A stretch of DNA of 64,000 nucleotides. Source: Candidatus Tritonobacter lacicola (GTDB lineage Bacteria > Auribacterota > Tritonobacteria > Tritonobacterales > Tritonobacteraceae). Positions 13,773 through 57,974 of the stretch are shown here, piece after piece. Position numbers and translations under genes: made by a program. The stretch is from the NCBI GenBank assembly GCA_030765135.1, contig JAVCDC010000125.1, forward strand, positions 31,607 through 95,606. Direction: 5' to 3'. Numbering within the stretch: position 1 is the first letter of the stretch; each line of letters opens with the position of its first letter. A model generated the notes under the pieces. It had not been told where the DNA came from, did no database searches, and saw only the letters and a program-made list of their open reading frames with translations.

Positions 13773-13850
13773 CGAATCTCCTTGCTAACGGGAGCGGTTA
13801 ATTGGTTGATCAGGAAACAGCATGTGCAATTATATAAGGATAATTCATCA

Positions 13851-13880
13851 TAAATTCGCGAGCGTAGCGAGCGAATTTAT
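13851..13880. promoter_or_regulatory. 30-bp near-palindromic element, copy 1 (TAAATTCGCGAGCGTAGCGAGCGAATTTAT)
   Basis: Reverse-complement version of the motif found at 25198, 27031, 31163 and 57975; about 80 nt upstream of the 11937..13772 gene start. Confidence 0.6.
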
Positions 13881-17303: not shown

Positions 17304-17571
17304 GCACCGCCCCTTTATCCGGTCAAGGACAATCTTTACGGGAGCCGCCTCCCGTAAAAAGATAAGCCCGCTCTCGCGAAAGAACGGGCCCCGGGCGCCA
17401 ATGCCTCAATCCAGCAGCCCGACCGCCGTGTCCCCTACGGGGATGTAGGCTCCAAGCTTTGTGCCCCACCCTTTCGCGGTGGTTTACCCTTAGGATTTAA
17501 TGTATTAAGTGAAAGAACAGCGCCTGCCCACTATATATATACCATCGCACCAGCGCTGTGTCAAGGAGGAT

Positions 17572-20792: not shown

Positions 20793-20921
20793 CTTTTTCT
20801 ATACTTTCGTACTCGTAATCTTAATCGTAATCCCATACGCCTTACCCAGAATATATTTGTTTGTGTTTTTGTTTCTTGTTATTTAGTTTTTCATTTTTAC
20901 CACAAGTCCTTTGATGCCTTT

Positions 20922-22418
20922 TCAGACCCTCGCGAAGCCCCTCAGCCTGCACTTTATTCTGCGGTAGCCCACTATGATAACCGCGTACAGCGGATTAAAT
21001 ACCTTTCTGTTAAAAGCGAACACTGCCGGAGCCGACAGCAGCAACCTCATCAGTACCCTGGGGAAGCCGTGGTTCAGGAGCAGGAACATGAGGTTGAGGT
21101 AGCTGCTCTCCCTTATGTGGAACTGCTTGCGGTAAACGTCCACCTTCTCGTCTGCCAGGATGCCGTCGGCCCTCGCCCGGTCGTAAAGCACCGTTCCGGG
21201 AAAAAGCACAAGGGAGAACGGCTGGAGGACGTACGGCCGGGGAAGCTTAAGGGCGAAGCGGAGCGTCTCCACGACGTCACGGGTGTCCTCGTACGGGTTG
21301 TCCAGAAGGAAATCGTATATCGGCATGACGGTCTTCCGGTGCCTGTTTATCAGCACCGCCGCCTTCTCCGTGAGATCCACGGGTATGCGCCTGTTGTACA
21401 GCTGCAGCGTCCGCTCGCTCGCCGACTGGATGCCCATCTGGAGCTCCACCATGCCGGCCGCCGCCAGGTGCTCCAGCTTTCCCGCGGTTATGGTCAGCGG
21501 CGACCCCAGGCAGAAAAAAGGCAGGCCGACCTTTTTCCTGTAGAGCCCGGCGAACTCGGCGATCGCCTCCTCGCCGGCGGCGAAGAAGGAATCATCGGAG
21601 AACGTGATCCTCTTTATGAAGGGGTACCTGCGAACCACCTCCGACAGCTCCGAAACGATGTTTTCAGGGCTCCGGCGCCTGAGGTATCTCTGGCCGCCGT
21701 AGAGCTTTCTCAAGAGGTGATTGCAGCAGTACGTGCAGCTGTGGGGACACCCGCGCGTGGCCATCGTCTGGTATGGAACGGTGCGCGCGTTCAGGGCCAT
21801 CGGGCTCGACCCCAGGAACTCCTCCAGCAGCTCCCTGTCCATCCTCTCGACCCGCCCCTCCCCCGCAATCATGACGTAGTCGTCCTCCAGCTCGTAATCC
21901 GGGAAGGGAAGGTTATCGAGGTCCTGGATCAGCGGACGAAGGTTATTCCTCACTATCTCGCCGTCCCTCCTGACCCATATATTGGGGACGTCCCCGGCGG
22001 GCAGGCCTTCCCCCATCCTCCGGACCAGATCGTATAGGGCCTCCTCGCCCTCACCCACGCATATCATGTCCGCGTGCCGGAGGCACTCCCCGGGCTTTAC
22101 CGTGGGATGGATCCCTCCCCAGAGAACGGGGGCGCGTATCCTCTCCTTCAGCTTTGCCGTGAGGTCCGCCACCCTCTCGAAATACATCGTGAAGAGGGAG
22201 ATGCCCACGAGGTCCGCGTCGGCGCAGAGCACGGCGACCCTGTCTAGCACGGCCGGATCGTACCGGTAGAACCTCCCGGAAAAATCCTCCAGCTCCGCGA
22301 CGGCGTCGGGAAGAAATATCTGGCGCGTCGGCACCCCGCGCGACTTGAGGTAGGCGGCCAGAGACCTCATGCCGAACGCGGTTATGTCCGAATACGGCGC
22401 TATCAGCACAACCCTCAT
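20922..22418 (-). CDS. B12-binding domain radical SAM enzyme
   Basis: MRVVLIAPYSD...DADLVGISL B12-binding region; TRGCPHSCTYCCNH CxxxCxxC motif. ATGA overlap with the downstream gene. Confidence 0.75.
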   Translation of the reverse strand: MRVVLIAPYSDITAFGMRSLAAYLKSRGVPTRQIFLPDAVAELEDFSGRFYRYDPAVLDRVAVLCADADLVGISLFTMYFERVADLTAKLKERIRAPVLWGGIHPTVKPGECLRHADMICVGEGEEALYDLVRRMGEGLPAGDVPNIWVRRDGEIVRNNLRPLIQDLDNLPFPDYELEDDYVMIAGEGRVERMDRELLEEFLGSSPMALNARTVPYQTMATRGCPHSCTYCCNHLLRKLYGGQRYLRRRSPENIVSELSEVVRRYPFIKRITFSDDSFFAAGEEAIAEFAGLYRKKVGLPFFCLGSPLTITAGKLEHLAAAGMVELQMGIQSASERTLQLYNRRIPVDLTEKAAVLINRHRKTVMPIYDFLLDNPYEDTRDVVETLRFALKLPRPYVLQPFSLVLFPGTVLYDRARADGILADEKVDVYRKQFHIRESSYLNLMFLLLNHGFPRVLMRLLLSAPAVFAFNRKVFNPLYAVIIVGYRRIKCRLRGFARV

Positions 22419-23548
22419 TTCAGCAAAGTCCCCAGTTTCCCGGCGAGGGCGTCAGCCACCACCCCGTGGCCGTCGTAGTTCCAGTGAATCCAGCGGAGGG
22501 CCTTCCCCCTCTCGAGAAAATCGTCCCTGAAAACACCCTGTAGGCCGATGTAGTCAACGCCGAGGACGGCCGCTAGATCTCCGAGGTCCTTATCGAAAAA
22601 ATCTCCGTCGAAAGAGGGGTCGATAGACCTGTAACGCTCCTCGCTCTCCGGCTCGTAGGCCAGCGTCTCCATGCAGACCAGGAGGAAACCGCACCCCCGC
22701 TCACCGCAGAGCCTGGCCATCTCGCCTATCAGCCGCTTGTTGAGCGCGTAGTTTGCAGCGTAGGCCTCATCGGGGGAGGCGGTGCAGAGTGTCAGGAAAC
22801 CTCCCAGGCTCTCTTCCTCTTCCTCGTAGCGCTTCGCCACGTTCTCCATGAGCCTCTTCCTGCGCCTCTCCACCAGGAGTGAAGCAAGGGCGGAGTTCCG
22901 GGTGAGGGCGCTGACAAACCCCTTCAACCTGTACGCCCCCGTCTCCCTGAAGCCCGGGTCAAGGCGCAGCTCCCCCTCCTCCCCGGCCGTGTAAAAAGGC
23001 CGCAGTGTCTCAGGGGCTGTCTCCCTTGAGACGTCCTCGATGTCCGTCCTGGGCATGAAGAAGAGTACGACCATGTCCGGCGAGAAATCCAGGACGTCGT
23101 TCTCCAGGATGAGAAGCTCCTCCGTCGTCGTAGCGCCGGACCTTCCGAAGTTCATGACCTCCACGCCGAAGGGGAACTCGCCCCCGAGCCTCTCCTCCGC
23201 GAGGGAGAGAAAGGTCTTCTCCTGCTCGACCTGCATCGCCTCGACGAAGCTGTCCCCCAGCACGGCGACCCGGCGGGCATCCTCCGGCTTCTCCGGCTGC
23301 CGCTCCCGGTCCCTCCACCCGTGCCTGTTTATCCTGCCCGTTATCGGATGGTCGTTCTCCTCGTAGTACCAGTACGCGGCGCCGGGGACCATCCTCCAGC
23401 TGATGAGAGGGTCCGGCATGGTCCAGGAGAGCCTGGCGCCGAAAAGATGTGTCGCCCTCAGTATAAGTTCAATTGCGAGGAACGTAACAACCAGCGCGAT
23501 AGCCGCAGCCCCTAACTTCCTGACAAGAGCGGATTTCAGTAATCTCAC
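22415..23548 (-). CDS. SGNH/GDSL-family hydrolase, membrane-anchored
   Basis: N-terminal TM anchor; VLGDSF (block I), NFGRSG (block II), WIHWNYDGH (block V, DxxH). Confidence 0.6.
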   Translation of the reverse strand: MRLLKSALVRKLGAAAIALVVTFLAIELILRATHLFGARLSWTMPDPLISWRMVPGAAYWYYEENDHPITGRINRHGWRDRERQPEKPEDARRVAVLGDSFVEAMQVEQEKTFLSLAEERLGGEFPFGVEVMNFGRSGATTTEELLILENDVLDFSPDMVVLFFMPRTDIEDVSRETAPETLRPFYTAGEEGELRLDPGFRETGAYRLKGFVSALTRNSALASLLVERRRKRLMENVAKRYEEEEESLGGFLTLCTASPDEAYAANYALNKRLIGEMARLCGERGCGFLLVCMETLAYEPESEERYRSIDPSFDGDFFDKDLGDLAAVLGVDYIGLQGVFRDDFLERGKALRWIHWNYDGHGVVADALAGKLGTLLK

Positions 23549-23607
23549 AAAAAAACCTCGCTATATATAATCATGCAGTGACCTGAACAGCCCCTCCGGC
23601 CCGTGCA

Positions 23608-25182
23608 CTAACGTATCTTGTGAATAAAGTTCCTGATGCGGTCGAGGTCGCCCGTCAGAACGGACCTGACTCCCTTATAGACTACTATCCCGGAATCACC
23701 GAGACGGCAAAGGAGAGAATACATGGGATTGAGAAAACTACGGCCCAACAACCTCGTGAAGAACCGCCGACTCAGCACGCCGAGCAACCACCCGGGGAAA
23801 CAGCTGTATCCCGCCAGGTAGATAAGAAAATTGGGATATGAGCCGAGAGGGGTGTGGAGATGCTTGCCGTAAATCTGCCGCCTCTCGTCCGTCAGCCACC
23901 CGTCCCTCTTGCCTATCTCGTAGAGCTTCGTGCCGGGGAAGGGGACCAGCGAAGACCTCTTCAGCCAGAACGGCCGGGGCAGCCGCAGGAGAAGATCGAG
24001 GGTCTCCATCGTCTCCCCGGGAGTCTCCCACGGGTTATCGAGGATGACGTGATAACAGGGCCAGAACATGCGGGGCGTGAAACAGCTGATTATCCGCGCC
24101 GCTTTGAGAATCTGCTCGTTCGTCGAACTCCGGTTGAACATGGAGCGTGTCCTCTCGTTTCCCGTCTGGACGCCCATTTCGACAAAGACCAGGCCGGCGT
24201 CGATCATGAGCTCCATCTTCTTCTCCGTGATCGTCGCGGGGCTCACCTGTATGTAGAAGGGCAGCCCGATAGCCTCTTTATAAAGGCGGCAGAAATCCGC
24301 GATCTCCGCCTCGCTCCTGAGAGCGAAGGTGTCGTCGAAGATGTTGATCCCCTCTATCCCGGGGAACTTCGCGGTGATCTCCCCGAGCTCGGCGATGATG
24401 TTCGGCACGCTTCTCTTGCGAAGGTGCTTCTGGCGGGGAAACATCTCCTTCATGATGCTTATCGAGCAGTAGTAGCAGCTGTGGGGGCACCCCCTCACGG
24501 TGTAAGTCTTGTACGTCCTCCACATCTTCCCGTACGGGTCGTAGAGGGTGCTCTCGGGAGACGGCTCCCTGGGGAAGGAGCGGCAGAGGAGCTCGGGCGT
24601 CATGCCGACTATGCGGCCCTCGTCCATGTGATAAACGTAGTGGTCCTCCAGGTCGTAATCGTAAAACGGGAGGCTGTCGAGGTCCTCGACCAGCGGGCGG
24701 AGCGGGTTCCTCTTCACCCTCCCGTCCTCCTTGAACCAGACTCCGCGGGTATCGGTGCAGTCCCGGCCCTCGCCCATCCTGTTTAATATCTCCTCGAGGG
24801 CCTCCTCCCCGTCGCCGATGCACACCATGTCCGCGTGCTCGAGGGCCTCCTCGGGCTTGACCGTGGGGTGAATACCGCCCCATATGACGGGAGGGCCGCC
24901 CGTCCCCTTCACGGCGCGGGTGAGCTGGACGGCGCGGTCGAAGTAGTTTGTCATGAGCGAAACGCCTACCAGGTCGGCATCTCCGCAGAGGGCGGCGACC
25001 TCGTCCAGGACGCGCGGCTCGTACCTGTACTCGTACCCTGCCCTGTGCTTCATCATCGCGACGCCTCCGGGGAGAAAAATAATGTTCACACCGTGCCCCC
25101 TGCTCTTGAGGTACGCCGATATAGACCTCACTCCGAAAGCGCTGAGGTCAGGCGGCGTCGGCGCCACTAAAACAACCTTCAT
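23608..25182 (-). CDS. B12-binding domain radical SAM enzyme
   Basis: MKVVLVAPTPP...DADLVGVSL; VRGCPHSCYYCSIS CxxxCxxC; about 45% identity by eye to the 20922..22418 paralog. GAGGAG 6 nt upstream of the ATG. Confidence 0.75.
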   Translation of the reverse strand: MKVVLVAPTPPDLSAFGVRSISAYLKSRGHGVNIIFLPGGVAMMKHRAGYEYRYEPRVLDEVAALCGDADLVGVSLMTNYFDRAVQLTRAVKGTGGPPVIWGGIHPTVKPEEALEHADMVCIGDGEEALEEILNRMGEGRDCTDTRGVWFKEDGRVKRNPLRPLVEDLDSLPFYDYDLEDHYVYHMDEGRIVGMTPELLCRSFPREPSPESTLYDPYGKMWRTYKTYTVRGCPHSCYYCSISIMKEMFPRQKHLRKRSVPNIIAELGEITAKFPGIEGINIFDDTFALRSEAEIADFCRLYKEAIGLPFYIQVSPATITEKKMELMIDAGLVFVEMGVQTGNERTRSMFNRSSTNEQILKAARIISCFTPRMFWPCYHVILDNPWETPGETMETLDLLLRLPRPFWLKRSSLVPFPGTKLYEIGKRDGWLTDERRQIYGKHLHTPLGSYPNFLIYLAGYSCFPGWLLGVLSRRFFTRLLGRSFLNPMYSLLCRLGDSGIVVYKGVRSVLTGDLDRIRNFIHKIR

Positions 25183-25197
25183 ATAGTACTCCTCAAC

Positions 25198-25229
25198 AAT
25201 AAATTAGCTCGCTACGCTCGCAAATTTAT
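25198..25229. promoter_or_regulatory. 30-bp near-palindromic element, copy 2
   Basis: ATAAATTAGCTCGCTACGCTCGCAAATTTAT, 16 nt upstream of the rSAM start at 25182. Confidence 0.6.
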
Positions 25230-25440
25230 GTGGCTCCGACTGCGTCGGAGCATTGTGACAGCCAAAAGCTTTATCCTGCACACCCTACCCCGGTCCCGGT
25301 GGGACTTTCCGTCAATAACTGCCGGATCTTAGACCCTCCGGCGGGATCCCTATCGGGAAAGGGTGCGGCTACCTTTGTAAACATAACAAATTCCTATACC
25401 ATTAAATTATTGGAATTTATTCAATTGGCCGAATTAAAGC
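25198..25440. repeat. repeated intergenic element, copy A (30-bp palindrome + GCTCCGACTGCGTCGGAGC hairpin + conserved 3' block GGCTACCTTTG.AAA.ATAACAAATTCCTATAC)
   Basis: Shares three collinear blocks with 57975..58140. Confidence 0.6.
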
Positions 25441-25504
25441 ATTATCACACCCACATGAAATGGAAGAGAATCATTCCTTCTACTCCGTATAATCCGCGAT
25501 TTTT

Positions 25505-27031
25505 TTATGTTTTATTATTCTTACCCCCCCTCGCCGCGAGGTAAAGCCTGATCAGGCGCCGCCTGATATAGCTCCACCCCTTCCTGAAGATAAAGAGGGG
25601 ATCGTTTACGATGAAGAGGCGGTACTCGCGAAGCCGCCGGGTGAGGCTCCGGTGATACCTGTAAACCCAGCCCGCTATCTCGCTTGCCGCCTTCTCGAAG
25701 TCATCCCTGCTCACGTCCTTCATGAAGTGGTTTACGGGCCACGCGCCGAACCGCCTCCAGTCGGGTTTTTCCGGGACAAGCCCCAGCTCCGCGCACCTCT
25801 CCATGAGCGGGCTCCCGGGCAGCGGCTCGAAGATATTGAAGATGATCGACGGCGTCCTGAGCGAGCGCATAAGAGAGAAGGTCCGGCGGATGTCGTCGAG
25901 CGTTTCCTCCGGGAAGCCGATGATGAAGTTCGCCCCGGCCGTTATACCGTTCCTGTACATGAGCTCGTACGCCTCCCGTATCTGGCGCAGGTCGACCCTC
26001 TTCTCTATGATTTTCAGCATCCTGTCGCTTCCCGACTCGATGCCTATCGAGAGACCGGCGCAGCCCGCCCTCTTCATCAGCTTCAGGAGCGGCTCCTCGA
26101 GAATATCGGCCCTGGTCATGGTGAGCCATGAAATATTCAGCCGCTCCTCTATCATGCGCTCACACAGCTCGGTGACGTACTCCCGGTTGACGGTAAAGTT
26201 ATCGTCGAGGAAGTTGACTATCCTGGCATTGAAAGTCCGGGTGAGGTATCTGACTTCCTCGATGACCCTGCCCGGCGACCGGAACCGCACGGTCCTCCTC
26301 CAGAAGAGGGGTGACGAGCAGTAGGCGCACTTCCACGGGCACCCCCTCGACGCCATGACGCCGACGAACGGCATCCGCCTGTAGGCTCCGGGCCTCAGAA
26401 CGAGGTGCGCGGCCGGCACGGGGAGAGCGTCCAGGTCCTCGATACACTCCCTGTCCGGGTTGTGGATCGTCTTTCCTCCTTCGATAAACGAGATGCCACG
26501 AATGGACCTCAGCCCCGGCCCCTTCCCCTCCAGGGAGGCGCAAAGCTCGGCAATGGTGCTCTCCCCCTCGCCCCGGACGATAAAGTCTATCCCGCCGTAG
26601 CCCAGGACATCATCGGGAAGGAAAGTCGGGTGGGCGCCTCCCCAGGCGACGGCGGTGGACGGGTTCATCTCCTTCGCGATCCTGCTCACCTTGAGGGCGC
26701 TGCCCACCTCCCCAGTGAGAACGCTGACCCCCACGAAGTCCGGCGAGAAATCCCCGATCACGCGCCGGACCTCCCGCCACACGGGATGGTCGTCCTCCCC
26801 GAGCGACCTCAGGTAGCGGGCGTGGCTCTCTCCCCGCTCCCTGAACATCGTAAACTCGTCCGGGACTATGCCGACCCCCAGGCCGGTGCTGTTGTCACCG
26901 TGATAAATACCCACCTCGTGCCCTTCCGCTTCGAGAACGGCAGCGAGGTAACCCACCCCGAGCGAGAAGATTGGAAGCTCCTCGAAGCCCTTCAGCCTCT
27001 TATAGGGCGGCCTGATAAGCAGCGCTCTCAT
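25505..27031 (-). CDS. B12-binding domain radical SAM enzyme
   Basis: MRALLIRPPYKRL...PDFVGVSV; SRGCPWKCAYCSSP CxxxCxxC. Its start codon is flush against the 30-bp palindromic motif. Confidence 0.75.
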   Translation of the reverse strand: MRALLIRPPYKRLKGFEELPIFSLGVGYLAAVLEAEGHEVGIYHGDNSTGLGVGIVPDEFTMFRERGESHARYLRSLGEDDHPVWREVRRVIGDFSPDFVGVSVLTGEVGSALKVSRIAKEMNPSTAVAWGGAHPTFLPDDVLGYGGIDFIVRGEGESTIAELCASLEGKGPGLRSIRGISFIEGGKTIHNPDRECIEDLDALPVPAAHLVLRPGAYRRMPFVGVMASRGCPWKCAYCSSPLFWRRTVRFRSPGRVIEEVRYLTRTFNARIVNFLDDNFTVNREYVTELCERMIEERLNISWLTMTRADILEEPLLKLMKRAGCAGLSIGIESGSDRMLKIIEKRVDLRQIREAYELMYRNGITAGANFIIGFPEETLDDIRRTFSLMRSLRTPSIIFNIFEPLPGSPLMERCAELGLVPEKPDWRRFGAWPVNHFMKDVSRDDFEKAASEIAGWVYRYHRSLTRRLREYRLFIVNDPLFIFRKGWSYIRRRLIRLYLAARGGKNNKT

Positions 27032-27060
27032 AAATTAGCTCGCTGCGCTCGCAAATTTAT
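27031..27060. promoter_or_regulatory. 30-bp near-palindromic element, copy 3
   Basis: TAAATTAGCTCGCTGCGCTCGCAAATTTAT, flush with and overlapping the rSAM ATG at 27031. Confidence 0.6.
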
Positions 27061-27130
27061 TACAAAAAATTTTTGAAATTCCGAGGCAGTAAATTAATTC
27101 GCTCCGCTCATTCATCCTGCATCCCGTATC

Positions 27131-27234
27131 TTTTCACGTTCCACGTCCCACGTCCCACGTTCGTTTTTTTTCACGTTACACGTCACACGTCACACGGTTG
27201 TTATTTCACGTTACACGTTTATCATTTCACGTTT
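27131..27234. repeat. tandem heptamer array A (CACGTNN)n, about 11 copies, T-run interspersed
   Basis: Read directly: ttcacgttccacgtcccacgtcccacgttcgttttttttcacgttacacgtcacacgtcacacgg...; it abuts the stop of LtaS-like paralog 1 and lies about 100 nt upstream of the rSAM start at 27031. Confidence 0.9.
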
Positions 27235-29046
27235 TTACTGAATGTATCCCAGGCTCCTGAGCTTCTCCTCTGTCTCGTAGTCCATGACCGTGACGGCCTC
27301 ACCCGCCCTCGGCAACTCCATGATCGAGCGGATCCTCTCCCGGTACTCCTTCACCAGGTCCTCCCGCTCCTTCGATATGTCCCGCAGTTCCAGGGGGTCC
27401 CCGTCCAGGTCGTAGAGCTCCACGGCATCGCCCGGCTTCACGATAAGCTTGTAGCGGTCCGTGCGGTAGGCGACATCGACCGGCCCGTCCCCCATCCGCT
27501 CCGCGACCTGGATCAGGGCGCCCTCCCGCGCGCGTGAGGCATCGCCCTTCATAAGCGGGAGCAGGCTCTCCCCCCCGCACCAGCCGGGGACCTCGAGGCC
27601 GGCCAGCTCCATTATCGTCGGGGCGATGTCGATGGTCTCGACAGGCTGCGGGACGCGCACCGGGCCGACCAGCCCGCGGCTCCGGATGAGCAGCGGCACC
27701 CTTATATGCCCATCGTAGAGCGCCTGGCTGTGACAGAAATAGAGGTCGTGCTCGGTGAGGCTCTCGCCGTGGTCACCTACGACCACGAGTATATAGTCGC
27801 CGGACCTCTCATCAAGCGCCTTCAGGAGCCTCCCCAGCTCCGCATCCATGTAGGTTATCTCCGCGTCGTACTGGGCGATCGGGTATTCGACGTCCGTGAA
27901 ATTGCGCAGCCGGGGCGGCCAGTAGGGGGGCAGCTCGATGCCATCCATCGACCGGTTGTCCGGGTCGTCCTTCCGCCCCTCGTAGTACATGCCCGAGTAG
28001 GGAGCCGGCGGCTCATAGGGGCCGTGTGGATCATTATAGTGCACCCAGAGAAAGAAGGGGACGCGCGCGGACCGCAGCCATGACACGGCATCGTCTGTCG
28101 TCCGGGCGGCAATCCGCTGAAACCTCCCGCCGGCAGTCCGCCCCAGCCAATCGGCAGCACACACGAGCACCAGGCTGTGGAATCCCTTCAGCCGCGAGAA
28201 ATCGTCGTCGTATATTTCGAACCCCCCTGAGAACCCGAACCGCGAATCAATCGGGAAGGCGCTCACGAACGCAGCCGTCCTGTAACCGCGCTTCCCGAAC
28301 TCGTGTACTATCTTCGGGATCTCCGGAGAGTGCCGCTGCTTGTTGCCAAGGACACCGTGCTGGTGCGGGTAAAGCGAGGTAAGGATGGAGAGGTGCGACG
28401 GGTTCGTCACGGGTATCTGGCTGATCGCGTTCTCGAAGAGGACTCCCTCAGACGCTATCCCGTCCAGAGTCGGCGTCAGGATCCGCTCGTTCCCGTAACA
28501 GTGGAGGCGGTCGGCCCTGACGGTGTCGAGCGCCACCAGGACTATGTTCGGCAGCCCCTCCTGCGGCGACGGCCCGCGCGCACCGGGAATCGCCAGCCAG
28601 GCGGTGATCCCCGCGAAGACGGCGATGCCGGCATAGACGCCCCTCCTGCCCCTGAGCTGGCCGCCGAGGGACAGGCCGGCAACAGCCGAGAGGAGGGCGG
28701 AGAGGGCGACCAGGACGGACGCCCACAGCAGAAACGGAGGAGAGAGGAGGACGGCCATACGGGACAGCCTGAAGGTTATGAGGTAAGCGAAGCCGTAGAG
28801 GAGACACCACGCCATGGCTGAGGAGGAGACGGCCACCCTCCATGGCGACGCCCGCCAGAGCCTCCGCCAGAGGGGGTAAAAGAGAACGCACGCGGCCGCA
28901 CCGTACAGCGCGTACATGAAGACTGCAACCAGTATAATCCCCAGCCTCCCCGCGGGAGTGAAATACAGCTCACGGATTGACGCCGCCTCGCCGTAGCCGA
29001 CGAGCCCACCCACCATGGCGCAGAAATATACCGCTCTCTTCATCAT
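27235..29046 (-). CDS. LtaS/EptA-like membrane-anchored sulfatase-fold (alkaline-phosphatase superfamily) transferase, paralog 1
   Basis: About 5 N-terminal TM helices, then a sulfatase-domain core IVLVALDTVRADRLHCYGN...ISQIPVTNPSHLSILTS...HG; the canonical C-x-P-x-R is replaced by T-N-P-S-H, consistent with a Thr nucleophile as in LtaS/EptA/MdoB. Confidence 0.65.
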   Translation of the reverse strand: MMKRAVYFCAMVGGLVGYGEAASIRELYFTPAGRLGIILVAVFMYALYGAAACVLFYPLWRRLWRASPWRVAVSSSAMAWCLLYGFAYLITFRLSRMAVLLSPPFLLWASVLVALSALLSAVAGLSLGGQLRGRRGVYAGIAVFAGITAWLAIPGARGPSPQEGLPNIVLVALDTVRADRLHCYGNERILTPTLDGIASEGVLFENAISQIPVTNPSHLSILTSLYPHQHGVLGNKQRHSPEIPKIVHEFGKRGYRTAAFVSAFPIDSRFGFSGGFEIYDDDFSRLKGFHSLVLVCAADWLGRTAGGRFQRIAARTTDDAVSWLRSARVPFFLWVHYNDPHGPYEPPAPYSGMYYEGRKDDPDNRSMDGIELPPYWPPRLRNFTDVEYPIAQYDAEITYMDAELGRLLKALDERSGDYILVVVGDHGESLTEHDLYFCHSQALYDGHIRVPLLIRSRGLVGPVRVPQPVETIDIAPTIMELAGLEVPGWCGGESLLPLMKGDASRAREGALIQVAERMGDGPVDVAYRTDRYKLIVKPGDAVELYDLDGDPLELRDISKEREDLVKEYRERIRSIMELPRAGEAVTVMDYETEEKLRSLGYIQ

Positions 29047-29110
29047 GTTGTTTTCATGCCCGTTACCCTGATTATAGTCCTGTTTAATCCGAAGTGTATT
29101 TTTCTTTTTC

Positions 29111-29368
29111 TACGTTACACATTACACGTTCCACGTTCATTTTTTTTACGTTACACGTTTATTATTTCACGTTCCACGTTTGTTTTTTACGTTACACGTT
29201 TCACGTTACACGTCACACGTTTGTTTTTTCACGTTTCACGGTTGTTTTTTTACGTTACACGTTTCACGTTACACGTTACACGTTTATTATTTCACGTCAC
29301 ACGGTTGTTTTTTTACGTTACACGTCACACGTTTGTTTTTCCACGTTACACGTTCGTTATTTCACGTC
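29111..29368. repeat. tandem heptamer array B (CACGTNN)n, about 25 copies
   Basis: Read directly; it fills the space between the start of paralog 1 (29046) and the stop of paralog 2 (29370). Confidence 0.9.
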
Positions 29369-29369
29369 T

Positions 29370-31163
29370 TCACTGTATGTAGCCCAGGCTCTTGAGCCTC
29401 TCCTGTGTCTCGCGGTCCATCAGGGGCACCCCGCGGGCGGTCGGGGCCGTCATCACCGATGCGATCCGCTCCTTCAGCTTGAGAACCAGATCCTCCCTCT
29501 CGCCGGAGATGTCGCGCAGCTCCCCCGGGTCCTTTCGAAGGTCGAAGAGGCGCGTCTCCTTTCCCGGGCGGACGATAAGCTTATACCCGCCGTCGTAGCA
29601 GGCGACGTCAAGGATGGACTCGTCTCCCTGCCGCCGCGTCTCGCTCAGCCCCTCGCCCGGCCCGGCGTTCTCGCCTTTCATGAGGGGAACGAGGCTCCTG
29701 CCCGAGCACCAGCCGGGCGCCTCAAGCCCCGCAAGGTCCAGGAGGGTTGGAACGATATCGATGGTCTGGACAACGGCTCCCACGCGCACCGGCTCGCCGG
29801 ACTTCCCGTGGCGAATAATCATGGGGACCTTGACCTGGTCATCGTAGAGATAGTCGCCGTGGCGGAAATAATACCCGCGCTCGTCAAGGCTCTCGCCGTG
29901 GTCACCGACGACAACGAGGATGGTGTCCCCGGAGCGCGAGTCTATCTCCTCCAGGAGCCTCCCGATCTGGGCGTCCGTGTAGGTGACCTCCGCGTCGTAC
30001 TGGGCGATGGGGTAGGCGATATCGGTGAAATCGCGGATCGTGGGCGGCCAGTAAAGAGGCATCTCCACACCGTCCATGCTCCGGTTGGCAGGGTCGTCCT
30101 TCCGCCCCTCGTAGTACATTCCAGAGTAGGGAGGCGGCGGGGCGTACGGGCCGTGAGGGTCGTAATAGTGCACCCACAGGAAATAGGGCTGCCGGGCGAT
30201 CCTGCGGAGCCAGGAGACGGCGTCATCGTTCGTGCGCCCCGCGATCCGCTCGAGGCGCCCGCCGGTTATCCCGAGTATCGAATCGATCACGCGCACGAGC
30301 GTCAGGCTCTGGTATCCCTTGAGGCGGGAGAAGTCGTCGTCGTATATCTCGAAACCGTCCGAGAAGCCGAACCGCGAATCCAGCGTGAAGGAGCTGACGA
30401 ACGCCGCCGTCCTGTAACCGAGCCTGCCAAGCTCGTGGACGATCTTCGGGATATCATCGGAATGCCGGTGCCAGTTCTCAACGACACCGTGCTGGTGGGG
30501 GTAGGTAGAGGAGAGGATCGATAGATGAGACGGGTTCGTTATGGGAATCTGGCTGACAGCGTTCTCGAAGAGGACTCCCTCAGACGCCAGCCGGTCGAGA
30601 ACCGGCGTGCGGACCCTGTCGTTTCCGTAACAGTGCAGTCGGTCCGACCTGATGGTATCGATCGTCACAAGGATTATATTCGGCAGCTCCCCCGGGGGCG
30701 CGGACGGGCGGCCTACGGGAAACACCATCCAGACCGTGAGCGCCGCGAAAATAACAGCGCCCGCATAGAGGCTTCTCTTCCCCTTCAGTACCCGGCCGAA
30801 CGCTCCCCCGGCCAGGAAGGAGATGGCAACGGATGCGACGAGGACGGCCGCCCCCCACATGAGAAACCGGTGCGCCTCACGGTGCATCAATCGGGAGATA
30901 ACCAGGTAGCCGAGGCCGTAAAGGAGGCACCACGCCATGACGGAGGAGGAGACGGCCGCCCTCCATGGCGACGCCCGCCGGAGCCTCCGCCAGAGGGGGT
31001 AAATAACCAGGCACGCGACCGCGCCGTACAGCGCGTACATGAAGACGGCAACCAGTATAATCCCCAGCCTCCCCGCGGGAGTGAAATACAGCTCCCGGAT
31101 TGACGCCGCCTCGCCGTAGCCGACGAGCCCACCCACCATGGCGCAGAAATATACCGCTCTCAT
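29370..31163 (-). CDS. LtaS/EptA-like sulfatase-fold transferase, paralog 2
   Basis: Same architecture. The N-terminal ~90 aa are nearly identical, at nucleotide level as well, to paralog 1. PITNPSH motif. Confidence 0.65.
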   Translation of the reverse strand: MRAVYFCAMVGGLVGYGEAASIRELYFTPAGRLGIILVAVFMYALYGAVACLVIYPLWRRLRRASPWRAAVSSSVMAWCLLYGLGYLVISRLMHREAHRFLMWGAAVLVASVAISFLAGGAFGRVLKGKRSLYAGAVIFAALTVWMVFPVGRPSAPPGELPNIILVTIDTIRSDRLHCYGNDRVRTPVLDRLASEGVLFENAVSQIPITNPSHLSILSSTYPHQHGVVENWHRHSDDIPKIVHELGRLGYRTAAFVSSFTLDSRFGFSDGFEIYDDDFSRLKGYQSLTLVRVIDSILGITGGRLERIAGRTNDDAVSWLRRIARQPYFLWVHYYDPHGPYAPPPPYSGMYYEGRKDDPANRSMDGVEMPLYWPPTIRDFTDIAYPIAQYDAEVTYTDAQIGRLLEEIDSRSGDTILVVVGDHGESLDERGYYFRHGDYLYDDQVKVPMIIRHGKSGEPVRVGAVVQTIDIVPTLLDLAGLEAPGWCSGRSLVPLMKGENAGPGEGLSETRRQGDESILDVACYDGGYKLIVRPGKETRLFDLRKDPGELRDISGEREDLVLKLKERIASVMTAPTARGVPLMDRETQERLKSLGYIQ

Positions 31164-31192
31164 AAATTAGCTCGCTGCGCTCGCAAATTTAT
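31163..31192. promoter_or_regulatory. 30-bp near-palindromic element, copy 4
   Basis: Same sequence as copy 3, flush with the ATG of LtaS-like paralog 2. Confidence 0.6.
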
Positions 31193-31273
31193 TATAAAAA
31201 ATTTTTGAAATTCCGAGGCAGTAAATTAATTCGCTCCGCTCATTCATCTTGCATCCTGAATCCTGTATCTTTT

Positions 31274-31427
31274 CACATTACACGTTCCACGTTCGTTTTT
31301 TTACGTTTCACGTTTCACGTTACACGTCACACGTTTATTTTTTCACGTCACACGTTCCACGTTCGTTTTTTTACGTTTCACGTTTCACGTTACACGTTAC
31401 ACGTTTATTTTTTCACGTCACACGTTT
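31274..31427. repeat. tandem heptamer array C (CACGTNN)n, about 17 copies with an internal ~63-bp duplication
   Basis: Read directly; it lies between the start of paralog 2 (31163) and the stop of the YfhO gene (31428). Confidence 0.9.
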
Positions 31428-33770
31428 TTACTGTATGCAGCCCAGGCTCCTGAAACGGGGAACGGACGCCCAGACAAGGAGGAGCAGAAGTGCGGCCAGG
31501 GATACGCGAGCACCCCACCTGAACGATCCCGGCCTGTAGATGAACTCCACGGTATGGCTCCCCGGAGAAAGCTCCACCGCCCTGAAGACATAGTCCGCGC
31601 GATAAACCGGCGCCTCCTCCCCGTCTATCTCGGCCGTCCAGCCCGGGTACCAGGTGTCCGTGAGGACAAGCCAGCCTCCGCGGGGCGAATCCGCCTCTAT
31701 CGTTACCCGGTCCGGGAGGTACCGGATGACGGCGCACGTGCTGCCTGCCGCGTCGTACTCCACGACCGGCGCGGAGAGCGCTCCATCATCCAGGAGCACC
31801 TCCCGGCGGGGATCGAAGGACGGCCCGGTCATGCGGGCGAGCGTCTCCTCCGCGGCCACGGGAGTAGCCCTTCCAACGATAAACGCGCGGGATAAACACC
31901 TCTCGTTCTCGTAGACCTTCACCCTCCCTCCCTGTATCCGCCTGAAGCCGGGCACGTCAATCTCGTGAACGGTGATAACGAAGCGCACGTTCAGAAGATC
32001 GAGCAGCTTCCGGTTCTTCTCCATGCGGCGCATCGACTCCTCCGGCGGCAGCGGCGCCAGGGAAGTCCCGGTCGCGTCTATGAGCGAGGAGAGCCTCTTC
32101 GGAATAAGTGGCGACGGGTACTCTATATCGGGCACGTTGAAGAGCATCCCGTAGCTTGCCGTCAAGAGTTCCTTCTCAAACGCGACGGGGACGTGCCTGT
32201 CCAGAATGGTTATCCTCCAGAGGCCGTCGGGCGCCGGCAGCGACCCGGCCGTGACGGGTCCCCTGAGAGCAATCTCGGCAGGGGTGACCGGATTATAGCC
32301 CCGCGCAAAAGCCACGAGGTCCGCGAGCGAGATAAAAATGATGAGCACGGCCGCCAGCGTCCCCGGAAGCCTGCGGGACGAAGCGAAGACGACGGCAGCC
32401 AGTGCCAGGAGCCCGATGGGGAGCATGTTCTCCGGGCGTCCCAGCCGCGTGCTTTCCCCCAGCCCGTCGATAAACGCGAGGGCTCTCTCCAGTTTGGGCG
32501 GCTCAAGGCCGGCGCGCAGCTTCCCCTCGATCTCCCCGCTACGGCGATTGAGGACGGCATGGGACAGGGGCAAAACGGCAGCGAAGAAAACGGCCAGGGC
32601 GATCGCTATAACGGCGAGCCTCATCGCCACCCGCCTATTGCGGAGGAGGTTATCGAGTCCGTAGCCGCTCAGGATGGCCAGTGAGAAAGTCAGAACGTAT
32701 CCGAACCTGGCGGGGAAGCGGAAGAGCGAGAACGGCGGAACCGCCATGAGAAGGCGGTATAACGGATTATATTTCCCCAGCATGAGCAGAAAGGAAACGG
32801 CGGCGAGAGCGATAAACACTCCCGCCCTCTTTGGCGGCGCGGCGAAAGCCAGCAAGAGCGGAAGCACACCGACATAGAAACAGAACTCCCAGTAGTTCAC
32901 GCCGACGCCCCAGTAGCCCGAGCCCTCCATGTGGTACGAAACGGGAACGGACGCCGGAGAGTCAAAACCGAAGAAGTGCGGAAAGATAAAATTTATGGCC
33001 TGGAATGGCGGGAACGAGCCCCACCCGAGAAAGCCGCTCTCCGCTCCCTCCCTGACGGAACGGACGGTCAGCTCCGCTGTCGGCAGAAGCTGGGCCGCCG
33101 GGATGGTCAGGGAGAAGAAGACGAGTATCGCAAGTGCGGGGAAAAACCGCCTCGGGCGGACTCCGAAGCGGCACAAGGTATAAAACGCCGCCGCCATGAG
33201 AGAATAAGACGCTATCTGTGGGTGCCCCGCCGTGAACTGGACGCCGACGACCACTCCGGCAAGGGCGATAAAAATCGCCCGCCTCCGTCCCTTCTCGATC
33301 AGCAGAAGGGCAAGCGGCAGCCAGGGATAAGCGCTCATCATGTGCATGAACGTCAGGTGGCTGACGGCGAACCCGCTTATCATGTAGACGGCGGATGACA
33401 GGAAGGACGGGGGGCGCGGCAAGCCGAGCTTCCTGCAGAGAGCGTAGGTGAAGAAGCCGGCCATGAGAAAGTGCCCGATGACGAGGAGGTTGCAGGCAAC
33501 GAGGGGGTGAAAAAGAAAAAACAGGATGATATTCGGCGGGTAGAGGGGGCCTGACTGTCCGTCGGCGAGCATCGGGAAGCCGCATCCCCCGAGTGGGTTC
33601 CATAGAGGTAGCGAGAAGTCCCGGTACAGGATGCCGTTGAACGCCCGCCACGGATAGTGGTGGTGGAATATATCGTGGAAGAAGAGCACCCCGTCCATCA
33701 GAAATAGGCCGGGGAAGATGATGAAGAGAACGAGAACAAGAAGCAGCAGGGGAAGCAGTCTCCCGGTCAT
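31428..33770 (-). CDS. YfhO-family polytopic membrane protein (GT-C-like glycosyltransferase)
   Basis: 780 aa, N-terminal ~13 TM helices, a single C-terminal TM helix, and the C-terminal periplasmic signature TDTWYPGWTAEIDGEEAPVYRADYVFRAVELSPGSHTVEFIYRP characteristic of YfhO proteins. Confidence 0.6.
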   Translation of the reverse strand: MTGRLLPLLLLVLVLFIIFPGLFLMDGVLFFHDIFHHHYPWRAFNGILYRDFSLPLWNPLGGCGFPMLADGQSGPLYPPNIILFFLFHPLVACNLLVIGHFLMAGFFTYALCRKLGLPRPPSFLSSAVYMISGFAVSHLTFMHMMSAYPWLPLALLLIEKGRRRAIFIALAGVVVGVQFTAGHPQIASYSLMAAAFYTLCRFGVRPRRFFPALAILVFFSLTIPAAQLLPTAELTVRSVREGAESGFLGWGSFPPFQAINFIFPHFFGFDSPASVPVSYHMEGSGYWGVGVNYWEFCFYVGVLPLLLAFAAPPKRAGVFIALAAVSFLLMLGKYNPLYRLLMAVPPFSLFRFPARFGYVLTFSLAILSGYGLDNLLRNRRVAMRLAVIAIALAVFFAAVLPLSHAVLNRRSGEIEGKLRAGLEPPKLERALAFIDGLGESTRLGRPENMLPIGLLALAAVVFASSRRLPGTLAAVLIIFISLADLVAFARGYNPVTPAEIALRGPVTAGSLPAPDGLWRITILDRHVPVAFEKELLTASYGMLFNVPDIEYPSPLIPKRLSSLIDATGTSLAPLPPEESMRRMEKNRKLLDLLNVRFVITVHEIDVPGFRRIQGGRVKVYENERCLSRAFIVGRATPVAAEETLARMTGPSFDPRREVLLDDGALSAPVVEYDAAGSTCAVIRYLPDRVTIEADSPRGGWLVLTDTWYPGWTAEIDGEEAPVYRADYVFRAVELSPGSHTVEFIYRPGSFRWGARVSLAALLLLLVWASVPRFRSLGCIQ

Positions 33771-33774: not shown

Positions 33775-35628
33775 TCACCTGATGTATCCCAAGCTACGGA
33801 GCTTCCCCTCCGTCTCGTAGTCCATAACCGAACTCGCCTCCATGGCCTGTCCCTTCGTAAGCGAGAGAATCCTCTCCCGGTATTTATCGATCAGGTCACC
33901 CCGCTCCTTTGAGATGTTCCTGAGCTCCCGGGGGTCGTTCTGGAGATCGTAGAGTTCGACATCGGCTCCCGGTTTGACGATGAGCTTGTAACGGTCGTCC
34001 CGGTAGGCGAAATCTACCGTCCCGTCTCTCTTTCTTCCGCCCGTTTCGCTCAGGGCTCCCTCTTTCGACGCCGCGTCCCCTCTCATTACCGGGACGAGGC
34101 TCTTTCCCCGGTACCACGCGGGAATGTCAATCCCCGCAAGCTCGAGAATCGTCGGGGCTATGTCGATATTTTCAACGGGGCTCGACAGCCTGACAGGCTC
34201 CACCTTCCCTTTCATCCTGAGAATAAGGGGAACTCGTATGTGCTCGTCATAGAGGGCCGAATCATGGCGGAAATAGAGGTCATGCTCGGTCAGGCTCTCC
34301 CCGTGGTCGCCGACGACGACCAGGAGGTACTCTTCACCGATCCAGGCGTCGAGCTCCTCCACGAGCCTCCCCAACTCTGCGTCCGTGTAGGTGATCTCCG
34401 CATCGTATTGAGCTACGGGATAATTGATGTCCGTGAAATCGACTGCACCGGGCGTCCAGTCGGGGGGCAGCTCGATACCCTCCATGCTGTGGTTGTTCGG
34501 GTCGTCTTTCACTCCCTTATAATACATTCCCGAATACGGGGAAGGAGGAGCGTATGGCCCGTGGGGATCGAAATAGTGAACCCAGAGGAAGAAGGGGGTC
34601 TTCGCCCTGCTGCGCAGCCACGATAGAACCTCGCTATTCGTCTCCCGGGCGTCTCGCTTGGTCATCAGCCGGCGAAAGGCTCTCAGGCCCCACCCCCTTG
34701 TAATGGCGACCCCGGCTATGCGAACCATGGAGAGGCCTTGGAACCCTTTGACTCCCGGGCCGCTGTCGTCGTATATCTCGAATCCCTCGGCAAAGCCGAA
34801 GCGGGATTCCAGAGGAAACGCACTTACGAACGCGGCAGTACGATATCCCCTCCTCGCGAACTCGTCGACAATGGTCGATATGCCCGGAGGACGCCTGCTC
34901 CTGTTATGCATGACTCCCAACTCATGAGGATAGCGGGAGGAGAGAATCGACAGGTGCGACGGATTCGTTACGGGGATCTGGGATATCGCATTTTCGAAGA
35001 GGGCCCCCACCGACGCCAGCCTGTCCATGGTGGGAGTCTCGATCGGCTCATGCCCGTAGCAGCAAATGCGATCGGCCCTGATCGTATCGATTGTCACCAG
35101 AACCACACTCGGTACATCCGCTCCGGGCTGCGCATCCCTTTTACCGGGCACAAAAGCCCAGATACCGAGAGCGAAGACCGCGCACGCCGCAGCTGCGGCC
35201 CATCCTCTCATCTTTAAAACGGTACCGGCGATCCAGCCGAAGAGGCATGCTGTAACGACGGAGGCCGCCATGAGTCCCGCAAAACACAGAAAAAAGCGTG
35301 CTGAGAAGGGGCCGCTCCTCGAGGGAATGCCGAAGAGCAGAATGGCAACGCTGTAGAGCAGAGCGATGGAGAATACGGCCGCCGGGTACACCGCCCGCGC
35401 GTCGTGGCGCGGCATAAGGACACGCCACGCAAAGGAGATGAGCACGGTGGCCGCCATTCCGTATACCGCGTAGCTCGCCGGAGCAGCGAGCAGCAGGCCG
35501 ATCTTTCCCGCGGCGGTGAAATAGAGCCTCGAGTAGACTATGAGAAGCACCGCCTCGGTATAGCCTGCGAGGCCGCCGAAGACCGCCCCGGCGATAATCG
35601 CCCTCCCTATAAATCCCCGTTTGGTCAT
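33775..35628 (-). CDS. LtaS/EptA-like sulfatase-fold transferase, paralog 3
   Basis: MTKRGFIGRAIIAGAVFGG N-terminus; TM domain plus sulfatase core with PVTNPSH. Confidence 0.65.
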   Translation of the reverse strand: MTKRGFIGRAIIAGAVFGGLAGYTEAVLLIVYSRLYFTAAGKIGLLLAAPASYAVYGMAATVLISFAWRVLMPRHDARAVYPAAVFSIALLYSVAILLFGIPSRSGPFSARFFLCFAGLMAASVVTACLFGWIAGTVLKMRGWAAAAACAVFALGIWAFVPGKRDAQPGADVPSVVLVTIDTIRADRICCYGHEPIETPTMDRLASVGALFENAISQIPVTNPSHLSILSSRYPHELGVMHNRSRRPPGISTIVDEFARRGYRTAAFVSAFPLESRFGFAEGFEIYDDSGPGVKGFQGLSMVRIAGVAITRGWGLRAFRRLMTKRDARETNSEVLSWLRSRAKTPFFLWVHYFDPHGPYAPPSPYSGMYYKGVKDDPNNHSMEGIELPPDWTPGAVDFTDINYPVAQYDAEITYTDAELGRLVEELDAWIGEEYLLVVVGDHGESLTEHDLYFRHDSALYDEHIRVPLILRMKGKVEPVRLSSPVENIDIAPTILELAGIDIPAWYRGKSLVPVMRGDAASKEGALSETGGRKRDGTVDFAYRDDRYKLIVKPGADVELYDLQNDPRELRNISKERGDLIDKYRERILSLTKGQAMEASSVMDYETEGKLRSLGYIR

Positions 35629-35688: not shown

Positions 35689-37545
35689 TCACTGGATGTA
35701 CCCGAGGCTCCGGAGCTTCCCCTCCGTCTCCGGGTCCATGACCTCGCTCGCCTCGCGCACCTGGCCCTCCAGGACGGAGCTGATCCGTTCCCGGAAAGTC
35801 TCCACAAGGTCCTTCCGCTCCCCGGAGATGTCGTTGAGCTCGCGCGGATCGTTCTCCAGGTCGTAGAGCTCGACACCCTCCCCGGGCTTCACTATGAGCT
35901 TGTACCGCTCCGTGCGGTAAGCGATGTCGATCGTCCCGTCCTGCTTCCGGCCGCCGGTCTCGCTCAGGACACCCTCCTTCGAGCGCCCCTCCTCCCCCCT
36001 CATCAGTGGGAGGAGGCTCTCCCCCTGGAAGCAATCGGGAACGGCGAGGCCGGCCATCTCCATAACCGTGGGGGCTATGTCCACATTCCCGACCGGGGAT
36101 GAGACCCGGGCGGGCCCGATGCTCCCCTTCCTGCGGATAATCAGGGGGACCATGATCTGCTCATCGTAAAGGCCCGCGCCGTGGTGAAAGTACGTGCCGT
36201 GCTCGGTCAGGCTCTCGCCGTGGTCGCCTACGACAACCAGTATATAATCCCCTATCCTCTCGTCGAGCTCCTTCACCAGCCTGCCCAGCTCGGCGTCCGT
36301 GTAGGTGATCTCGGCGTCGTACTGGGCTATGGGATAGCCGATATCGGTGAAATCGCGCTGATCGGGCGCCCAGTAGCTCTGGAGCTTTATCCCGTCCATG
36401 CTGCGGTTGGAGGGGTCGTCCTTTACTCCTGCATAATACATCTCCGAATACGGCGCCGGCGGCGTGTACGGCCCGTGAGGGTCGAAATAATGGACCCAGA
36501 GAAAGAAGGGCGGCTCCCCCCTGTTCTCAAGCCACGAGAAGACCTCCCTGTTCGTCCTCCACGCGTCCCTCTTCAGCTTCAGGCGGCTGGCCAGCGTGGA
36601 TGCCCCTGTCCTCCTCAAGACCACGTCGGCTATGCGGACGAGGGAGAGGCTCTGGACCCCCTTGATCCTCGAGCTGTCGTCGTCGTAGACGTCGAACCCC
36701 TCGGCGAAACCGAAGCGGGAATTGAGGGGAAAGGCGCTTACGAACGCGGCCGTCCCGTAGCCCTGTTTCCTGAATTCGTCGACGATCGTTGTGATTCCGG
36801 GCGGGCGCCTGTGCCAGTTGGTGATAAGGCCCGTCTGGTGCGGGTACCGGGAGGAGAGGATCGATTGGTGAGAGGGATTCGTTATCGGGATCTGGCAGAC
36901 GGCTTTCTCAAACAGAACCCCCTCGGAGGACAGCCCGTCCATAACGGGAGTCTTTATCCTCTCGTAGCCGTAACAGTTGATGCGATCGGCCCTGATCGTG
37001 TCTATCGTCACAAGAACGACGCTGGGCAATCCGCCCCCGGGCCGCGCTTTCTTCCCGGCGGGGAGAAACAGGCAGACCCCTATCGCGGCGACGGCGCACG
37101 CCGCGGCAACGGCAGTCCTCCTGCCCTTCAGGATGCGGACAGCGACCGCTCCCGCCAGGCAGGCCGCCAGCAGAGAAGCGATGAAAAGGCCCGCAGACCA
37201 CAGGAAGAAGCGCGCCGAAAGGAGGCCTGCCCCGGACACGACGCCCAGGGAGAGGAGGAAGGAGACGCTGTACAGGAGCGCCACGGAGAGTACCGCGATT
37301 GAAGCGGCGGCACGGTTCCCCGGGCCGCGCCGGAACAAGCGCCATACCCCCGCGAGAATAGCGGCGGCCGCACCCCCGTATACCGCGTAGAGCACAGCGG
37401 CCGCGACCAGGAGTCCGATTTTGCCCGCCGCGGTGAAATACACCCTGGAGAAAAGTATCAGGAAAGCGGCCTCGCCATAGCCTGCAAGCGCCCCCAGAAC
37501 CGCTCCCCTAAAAACCGCTTTTCTTGTAAATCCAGCTTTGCTCAT
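35689..37545 (-). CDS. LtaS/EptA-like sulfatase-fold transferase, paralog 4
   Basis: Start chosen at MSKAGFTRKAVFRGAVLG (37545) by alignment to the paralog 3 N-terminus MTKRGFIGRAIIAG; the ORF-track extends to 37563. PITNPSH motif. Confidence 0.6.
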   Translation of the reverse strand: MSKAGFTRKAVFRGAVLGALAGYGEAAFLILFSRVYFTAAGKIGLLVAAAVLYAVYGGAAAAILAGVWRLFRRGPGNRAAASIAVLSVALLYSVSFLLSLGVVSGAGLLSARFFLWSAGLFIASLLAACLAGAVAVRILKGRRTAVAAACAVAAIGVCLFLPAGKKARPGGGLPSVVLVTIDTIRADRINCYGYERIKTPVMDGLSSEGVLFEKAVCQIPITNPSHQSILSSRYPHQTGLITNWHRRPPGITTIVDEFRKQGYGTAAFVSAFPLNSRFGFAEGFDVYDDDSSRIKGVQSLSLVRIADVVLRRTGASTLASRLKLKRDAWRTNREVFSWLENRGEPPFFLWVHYFDPHGPYTPPAPYSEMYYAGVKDDPSNRSMDGIKLQSYWAPDQRDFTDIGYPIAQYDAEITYTDAELGRLVKELDERIGDYILVVVGDHGESLTEHGTYFHHGAGLYDEQIMVPLIIRRKGSIGPARVSSPVGNVDIAPTVMEMAGLAVPDCFQGESLLPLMRGEEGRSKEGVLSETGGRKQDGTIDIAYRTERYKLIVKPGEGVELYDLENDPRELNDISGERKDLVETFRERISSVLEGQVREASEVMDPETEGKLRSLGYIQ

Positions 37546-37633
37546 TAATCCCGCCATGTCCATCGATCAGGCGCGTAAAAAAGAATAATTATCACCCCGG
37601 GGCGTCATTAGCAAGAGAGAATACAACAGCGTA

Positions 37634-57971: not shown

Positions 57972-57974
57972 TTT

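Follow-up and report, generated by a model that had tools for sequence, protein, structure and literature searches.

A gene-conversion tract between two old tandem sulfatase-like genes of Candidatus Tritonobacter lacicola, and the probable replacement of the cassette upstream of one of them

Two adjacent genes for sulfatase-like membrane proteins, denominated here P1 and P2, start with almost the same sequence and then differ widely. Are they products of a recent duplication, or old paralogs that have exchanged part of their DNA? Both are located in a 64,000-nucleotide (nt) stretch, called the window in the following, from Candidatus Tritonobacter lacicola, an uncultured bacterium of the Auribacterota (PVC) found in Ace Lake, Antarctica (PMC9324843); proteins encoded in the window are exact matches to the entries MDP8248884-89 of this organism in the protein collection. 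A sequence-only reading had described about 270 nt as near-identical at the 5' ends of the two genes, and a further 90 nt as near-identical upstream of both. It had attributed them either to homogenisation of a regulatory plus N-terminal membrane module, or to a very recent segmental duplication. The features needed for the argument are the following.

27235..29046, minus strand: P1, open reading frame (ORF) for a 603-amino-acid membrane-anchored sulfatase-like hydrolase/transferase, exact protein match MDP8248885.1
29370..31163, minus strand: P2, ORF for a 597-amino-acid paralog of P1, with a PF00884 domain, exact protein match MDP8248886.1
28791..29038, minus strand: conversion tract in P1 (P1 nt 9-256)
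28925-29038, minus strand: youngest homogenised stretch of the P1 tract, one mismatch, at 28972
30914..31161, minus strand: conversion tract in P2 (P2 nt 3-250), beginning at the G of the P2 ATG
29047..29099, minus strand: P1's own 53-nt leader, containing TATAAT, without similarity to the P2 upstream region beyond GAGAGCG
31155..31262, minus strand: block upstream of P2, including a 31-nt palindrome (31162-31192) and ATGAGAGCG
27023..27130, minus strand: block upstream of g508, with its palindrome at 27030-27060
25505..27031, minus strand: g508, B12-binding radical SAM protein, start ATGAGAGCG (MRA...), sharing these 9 nt with P2
31428..33770, minus strand: g780, YfhO-like membrane protein
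27131..27234, minus strand: heptamer array A, (AACGTGN)n, directly after the P1 stop codon
29100..29369, minus strand: heptamer array B, between the P2 stop codon and the P1 leader
31263..31427, minus strand: heptamer array C, after the g780 stop codon

The order of transcription is P4, P3, g780, array C, block, P2, array B, leader, P1, array A, block copy, g508, g524, and every long ORF of the part of the window from P4 to g524 lies on the minus strand. P1 and P2 form a tandem repeat with a period of 2123 nt.

The near-identity of the 5' coding ends is real, and it ends abruptly. Within the tract 15 of 249 aligned sites differ (94% identity), against 470 mismatches at 1536 aligned sites outside (69% identity), and divergence is far from uniform along the genes. 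A maximum chi-square test for a single breakpoint places the change at about P1 nt 256, with a value (65.4) reached in 0 of 10,000 permutations, the highest of which was 26.2. In a codon-aware alignment nucleotide identity is 98-100% in codons 1-60, 89% in codons 61-90 and 54-83% beyond, and third codon positions are 93-100% identical in codons 1-60 and 34-70% in later codons. Synonymous divergence (dS, Nei-Gojobori) is 0.05, 0.19 and 0.30 in successive 30-codon blocks of the tract and 0.84 in the remainder of the gene, identity thus decaying from 5' to 3' within the tract. The two proteins agree in all of the first 47 residues that follow the start. The extent of about 90 almost identical amino acids given earlier is slightly generous, as identity over residues 1-88 is 89%, and the longest exact run shared by the two genes is 68 nt. 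Homology sets in at the heptanucleotide GAGAGCG, which starts at the G of the P2 ATG and falls in codons 3-4 of P1 (ATGATGAAGAGAGCG); further upstream the sequences are unrelated. The tract makes up the 5' 14%, approximately, of the gene and codes for the first two or three membrane helices.

Outside this segment P1 and P2 are not close. Amino acid identity drops to 34% in residues 89-165 and is 66% in the catalytic domain, the divergence of which had been correctly noticed. Catalytic domains of P3, P4 and homologues from other populations (L047, L048 and L050) are 61-66% identical to that of P1. P1 and P2 are old paralogs, because the identity between them in this domain equals that of P1 to the other members of the family, and a recent duplication followed by fast divergence is excluded. 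The ratio of nonsynonymous to synonymous divergence (dN/dS) outside the tract, about 0.34, together with the dS of 0.84, points to a long period of ordinary purifying selection; metal and nucleophile motifs are retained in both proteins. In the segment corresponding to the 5' tract, P3, P4 and the other homologues are only about 40% identical to P1 and P2 at the amino acid level. A discrete gene-conversion tract, not a recent duplication, is therefore supported, since P1 and P2 are no closer in the catalytic domain than other paralogs and homologues. That the N-terminal membrane module has been homogenised thus holds, on the abrupt breakpoint, the identity of synonymous sites and the age of the rest of the genes. 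Representative genome contigs scanned with P1 gave only distant bacterial homologues (at most 41% identity), the source species not being among the representatives; a protein search with the 101-residue N-terminus gave no matches, which reflects a word-index limit and is not evidence of absence; and a metagenome DNA scan for the 5' tract gave zero matches in a collection that is incomplete, since JGI contigs contain the tract.

The upstream repeat has a different meaning. Segments 27023-27130 and 31155-31262 are identical at 104 of 108 positions, and their similarity extends into arrays A and C, so that a true repeat had been spotted; but in the minus-strand sense the copy at 27031-27120 is located downstream of P1 and immediately upstream of g508. 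The region truly upstream of P1 (29047-29099) has no similarity in alignment to that of P2. P2 therefore shares its upstream region with a radical SAM gene, and P1 and P2 have no regulatory region in common, because the second copy of the block fronts g508. Homogenisation of a regulatory region between P1 and P2 is accordingly not supported. A sigma-70/terminator consensus scan of the intergenic cassettes revealed no convincing promoter or terminator on the minus strand. The palindrome had also been considered as the TATA element (-29..-22) of an archaeal leaderless promoter, a candidate dropped because the host is a bacterium.

The history of the block can be followed in relatives. In L047, a species with 71-79% nucleotide identity in the flanking genes, two sulfatase genes are followed by a short heptamer array, the same block and the g508 orthologue, and g780, P1 and P2 are missing at that position. 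The L047 block (7854-7995) is 98% identical to either window copy, which implies strong constraint on, or homogenisation of, a non-coding element. In L075 the palindrome alone is found upstream of the g508 orthologue. The ancestral position of the block is upstream of g508, because L047 carries the same block before the orthologue of this gene. In the close relatives L049 and L073 (92-95% nucleotide identity) g780' is followed by an unrelated spacer of about 280 nt, denominated X, and then by a gene starting with ATGAAGAGAGCGCTATATTTC, with neither array nor block in between; a ATGAAGAGAGCG-type start is found in L049, L073 and L052. Array C and the block upstream of P2 thus appear to be derived in the window lineage, because they are absent there in close relatives. 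The near-identity of the two window blocks is no measure of recency, since 98% identity is kept in L047 in spite of much more diverged flanks, and the block is made up of repeat modules that are dispersed across the genome.

Other boundaries in the region have been rearranged as well. The last 8 codons of g780 (FRSLGCIQ and stop, window 31428-31453) resemble the tails of the sulfatases (LRSLGYIQ and stop), while those of the relatives read RSLGCTR or RRLGCTR and stop (L049 7300-7336; L073 12310-12340). The sulfatase-type tail of g780 looks like a remnant of some earlier event, fusion or recombination, at the 3' end of a sulfatase gene. The limits of the copied cassette fall, on the left, inside these last codons of g780 and, on the right, at GAGAGCG. 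P2', the P2 orthologue of the ERZ24794679 population, comes after a P1-like tail, a short array and a leader of P1 type (L052); in L075, from the same population, another P1-like tail stands before the palindrome and g508'. Spacer X is found after both g780' and P2' (L049 7337-7616; L052 1976-2200; L073 12341-12512), and in the close relatives no P3 separates P4' from g780'. These arrangements make it evident that the lineage has repeatedly joined gene boundaries to new partners. Spacer X holds short tandem repeats of its own (CGTAATCGTACT-like), and contigs break inside it.

All this is best explained, with a high degree of probability, by conversion between old tandem paralogs plus a separate replacement of the cassette before P2. 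Intragenomic homologous recombination, either ectopic gene conversion or unequal crossing-over, would have overwritten the first 250 nt or so of one paralog with the other. More than one event is probable, the newest covering about the first 115-120 nt. The 5' limit of the tract would be the limit of homology: the tract stops exactly there because the regions upstream of P1 and P2 differ, and P1 would have retained its private leader. As for P2, the ancestral spacer after g780 would have been replaced by a copy of the cassette separating a sulfatase gene from g508, made up of a sulfatase 3' tail, the heptamer array, the palindrome block and an ATG. The anchors of the exchange may have been the sulfatase-like tail of g780 (AGGAGCCTGGGCTGCA), to the left, and the microhomology GAGAGCG, to the right; the start of P2 would have changed from ATG(ATG)AAGAGAGCG to ATGAGAGCG. 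Direction and number of events, and general (RecA-type) recombination as the agent, are what we infer from the pattern. A one-step tandem duplication with its junction at GAGAGCG was considered, and not adopted as the whole history: it predicts a block-bearing copy downstream of a leader-bearing copy, the opposite of what is observed. The mechanism is one already known; the locus, in turn, is unusually recombination-active and carries two unexplained classes of repeats.

How recent the exchange is can be estimated from P2', which is 95% identical to P2 overall and 92% over the first 250 nt (19 of 250 sites differ). The tract is under no special nucleotide constraint, because between P2 and P2' it is no better conserved than the gene as a whole. 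Outside the tract P2 is 95% identical to P2' and 69% to P1. Over the whole tract (250 nt) differences number 16 between P1 and P2, 19 between P2 and P2' and 22 between P1 and P2', and over the first 115 nt they are 2 for P1-P2 against 6 for P2-P2'. The simplest reading is that an older conversion of about 250 nt, near the time of the population split, was followed by a younger and shorter one at the extreme 5' end. A possible trace of continuing exchange is contig L051 (ERZ27315768, MEGAHIT k141, 2264 nt), in which the first 141 nt recur as the last 141 nt, so that its cycle is 2123 nt, the P1/P2 period. After the P2 tail, array B and the P1 leader, its sequence is of P1 type up to nt 75 and of P2 type from nt 123 onwards, continuing into the P2 body; the crossover falls within a 47-nt identical stretch. 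This junction possibly results from unequal crossing-over, or from the excision of a circle, between the two tracts.

Several points weigh against a simple history of recent conversion. The comparison of paralogs with orthologues covers P2 and P2', the P1 5' end of the relatives not having been recovered, and 16 against 19 differences over the whole tract is a weak contrast. Nine sites of the tract unite P2 and P2' against P1, and because of these sites some of the homogenisation must date from about the time of the population split and is not very recent. L051 is a single MEGAHIT short-read contig and could be a graph artefact, and an exact look-up in the protein collection for the reciprocal hybrid, a P2-type start on a P1 body, found none.

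That the shared 5' end is itself a collapse or chimera of assembly is the least probable of the alternatives. The source is a metagenome-assembled genome (MAG), several contigs break within the tract or the arrays, and one circular-type chimeric contig is known; but the layout P2-324 nt-P1-204 nt-g508 recurs in 18 of 18 public contigs carrying P1, from several samples, assemblers and data centres, and a full comparison of six P2-carrying contigs (JGI and ENA, different samples) with the window, from P4 to g508, gives 99.96-100% identity. The 15 differing sites inside the tract mean that the copies have been separately resolved, and exact sharing does not exceed 68 nt. Some older contigs end at P1 nt 74 or begin at P2 nt 70, the edges of this exact repeat, which is the expected effect of a real repeat on short-read graphs. 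The only length difference among assemblies concerns array C (31263-31427 against L041, L045 and L077), which is exactly one 70-nt unit shorter in ENA/MEGAHIT than in JGI contigs; it is either a real length polymorphism or the collapse of a 2.3-copy repeat. The artefact is thus excluded as far as public assemblies allow. Only marginally better placed, and very improbable, is the recent segmental duplication which would have created P1 and P2 along with arrays and upstream blocks, the catalytic domains diverging fast thereafter. It accounts for the tandem arrangement 2123 nt apart, for an array on each gene and for the common tail and 5' end. It is contradicted by the synonymous divergence and the dN/dS outside the tract, by catalytic domains no closer than those of other paralogs or of homologues from other species, and by upstream regions that are unrelated; furthermore, a relative already has P1-like and P2-like genes at 95% nucleotide identity. 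Selection might also preserve identity in place of recombination, acting on nucleotides (an embedded mRNA or DNA element) or through a strict co-adaptation of the first membrane helices to a shared partner. Nucleotide constraint does exist at the locus, the neighbouring non-coding block being conserved across species far beyond its flanks. But the tract is, if anything, more diverged between P2 and P2' than the gene average, homologues such as P3 and P4 share little of the segment, and protein-level selection leaves the identity of synonymous sites unexplained; there is little chance that selection is the cause.

More room, though it remains unlikely, is left for a shuffling of cassettes at gene boundaries. 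The ...SLGYIQ tail, array, palindrome/leader block and 5' tract would be portable modules of a lineage-specific boundary system, which would excise whole enzyme bodies as circles of about 2.1 kb, amplify and reorder them, and re-insert them paired with other promoters. The circular-type L051, with a cycle of one repeat period, fits in, as do the P1-like tail, array and P1-type leader before a P2-type body in a relative, the double occurrence of both the P1-like tail and spacer X in the ERZ24794679 population, the absence of P3 between P4' and g780', and the swapped promoter region of P2. Ordinary homologous recombination between direct repeats, however, yields everything seen; the L051 crossover, known from one short-read contig, falls inside the coding tract and outside both arrays and palindrome; and no dedicated recombinase has been identified, no search for an integrase, as known from integron-type gene cassettes, having been made. 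If such a system existed, it would make the members of a population differ in a gene cluster for cell-envelope modification, in an uncultured bacterium of the PVC group.

Conversion between old paralogs has well-known parallels. The tuf genes are an example of concerted evolution by gene conversion. Ectopic conversion among bacterial paralogs has been surveyed, for instance in PE_PGRS pairs (PMC6053082, PMC12046097). The P1/P2 tract is similarly near-identical, synonymous sites included, inside otherwise diverged paralogs of the same genome, close to each other and in direct orientation, and ends where the flanking homology is lost. It differs in that only the 5' end of the genes is affected, that it abuts a swapped promoter cassette, and that the contrast of paralogs with orthologues is weak, since the age of part of the tract is close to that of the split from the nearest relative. 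Chimeric genes, duplications and deletions are formed by unequal recombination between paralogs (PMC13626634), and the hybrid junction of L051, with a P1 5' end and a P2 body, is the expected product of crossing-over between the 5' tracts; L051 is, however, a minority circular-type contig in one metagenome, and the dominant haplotype keeps both parental genes. The locus is a clear case in nature of gene conversion over part of a gene, combined with promoter replacement, in a candidate phylum without cultured members, and illustrates how such repeats fragment short-read assemblies.

Two classes of repeats mark the gene boundaries, and may merit a separate study. One is an oriented 31-nt near-palindrome, ATAAATTTGCGAGCG(C/T)AGCGAGCTAATTTAT, found in five copies in the window and in 20 further metagenome stretches (L053-L072). 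At least 26 distinct copies are known, five in the window, one each in L047 and L075 and the others in metagenome contigs, and 19 of 26 are located 0-22 nt upstream of the start of an ORF on the same strand. GC-rich hairpin modules often precede the palindrome, in modular combinations. The other class consists of heptamer arrays, (AACGTGN)n, punctuated by A-runs every 21-28 nt. Four such arrays in the window, and one at a further genomic locus, set in 0-5 nt behind a stop codon; the preceding genes are three envelope genes and a radical SAM/SPASM gene.

13850-13880, 25199-25229, 27030-27060, 31162-31192, 57973-58003: copies of the palindrome in the window
27131-27234, 29100-29369, 31263-31427, 46557-46645: heptamer arrays in the window
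L059, minus strand (2256-2344 on the reverse complement): heptamer array at the further genomic locus

Short arrays are found also in L047, L048, L052 and L075, and their length varies among relatives. As short stretches of homology scattered over the genome, both palindromes and arrays can serve as starting points for recombination. In the locus no match to Rfam was found, and the predicted RNA fold of palindrome and block is no better than that of shuffled sequences (minimum free energy -7.7 kcal/mol, z = +0.38), while the heptamer array is weakly structured as RNA (z = -2.0). REP/BIME elements are dispersed intergenic mosaic repeats of Enterobacteria. The near-palindrome and its hairpin modules resemble them, being found in many intergenic places and in modular combinations; in contrast, the near-palindrome is oriented and, in 19 of 26 copies, close to start codons, not typically located at operon 3' ends, and has no predicted stable RNA hairpin.

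As for the proteins, each contains a Pfam Sulfatase domain (PF00884, residues 166-483, E 5e-49 for P1) preceded by four or five hydrophobic segments in residues 1-156. Closest matches among PDB structures and NCBIfam models are S1 sulfatases, both choline sulfatases (7oz8, 5e-38) and arylsulfatases, and no NCBIfam model passes its curated cut-off. No match to LtaS was found among the same structures and models, and EptA/MCR models match only a stretch of about 50 residues, far below their cut-offs. The C/S-x-P-x-R formylglycine motif is replaced in P1-P4 by T-N-P-S-H, with threonine for Cys/Ser and histidine for Arg. The label LtaS-like, used at first for these proteins, is thus apt for the architecture and the threonine at the nucleophile position, but not as family membership. 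They resemble LtaS/EptA-type transferases in the N-terminal multi-helix anchor, the extracytoplasmic PF00884 domain and the TNPSH threonine, and differ from them in matching S1 sulfatases best. P1-P4 are probably not formylglycine sulfatases degrading polysaccharides. Four sulfatases have been counted for this MAG (PMC9324843); they correspond to a recombining tandem family of membrane-anchored enzymes with a predicted threonine nucleophile.

P1-P4 sit in an envelope cluster with a flippase, glycosyltransferases, an acyltransferase, the YfhO-like protein and many B12-radical SAM genes. Besides the genes listed above, the nearest members are the following.

33775-35628, minus strand: P3, sulfatase-like
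35689-37563, minus strand: P4, sulfatase-like
23608-25182, minus strand: g524, B12-binding radical SAM protein

B12-binding radical SAM paralogs are unusually numerous. Six with both B12-binding and radical SAM domains, and two more with radical SAM only, are encoded in 19464-27031 and 44121-49630, interleaved with the flippase, glycosyltransferases, a lipid A-type acyltransferase and a GDSL lipase, and further B12-binding radical SAM genes are called in contigs matching the window. The region is probably a cluster for the modification of cell-envelope lipids or glycans. Five independent contig records stop about 110 nt into g508 (26917-26922), which suggests another repeat or a strain-variable point. 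The only Rfam match of the window is a c-di-GMP-I riboswitch on the minus strand (17410-17498, 57.8 bits, E 1e-8), upstream of a 1126-amino-acid ORF (13923-17303); the latter has no Pfam domain, and contains internal tandem repeats of 198/399 nt (13953-14803).

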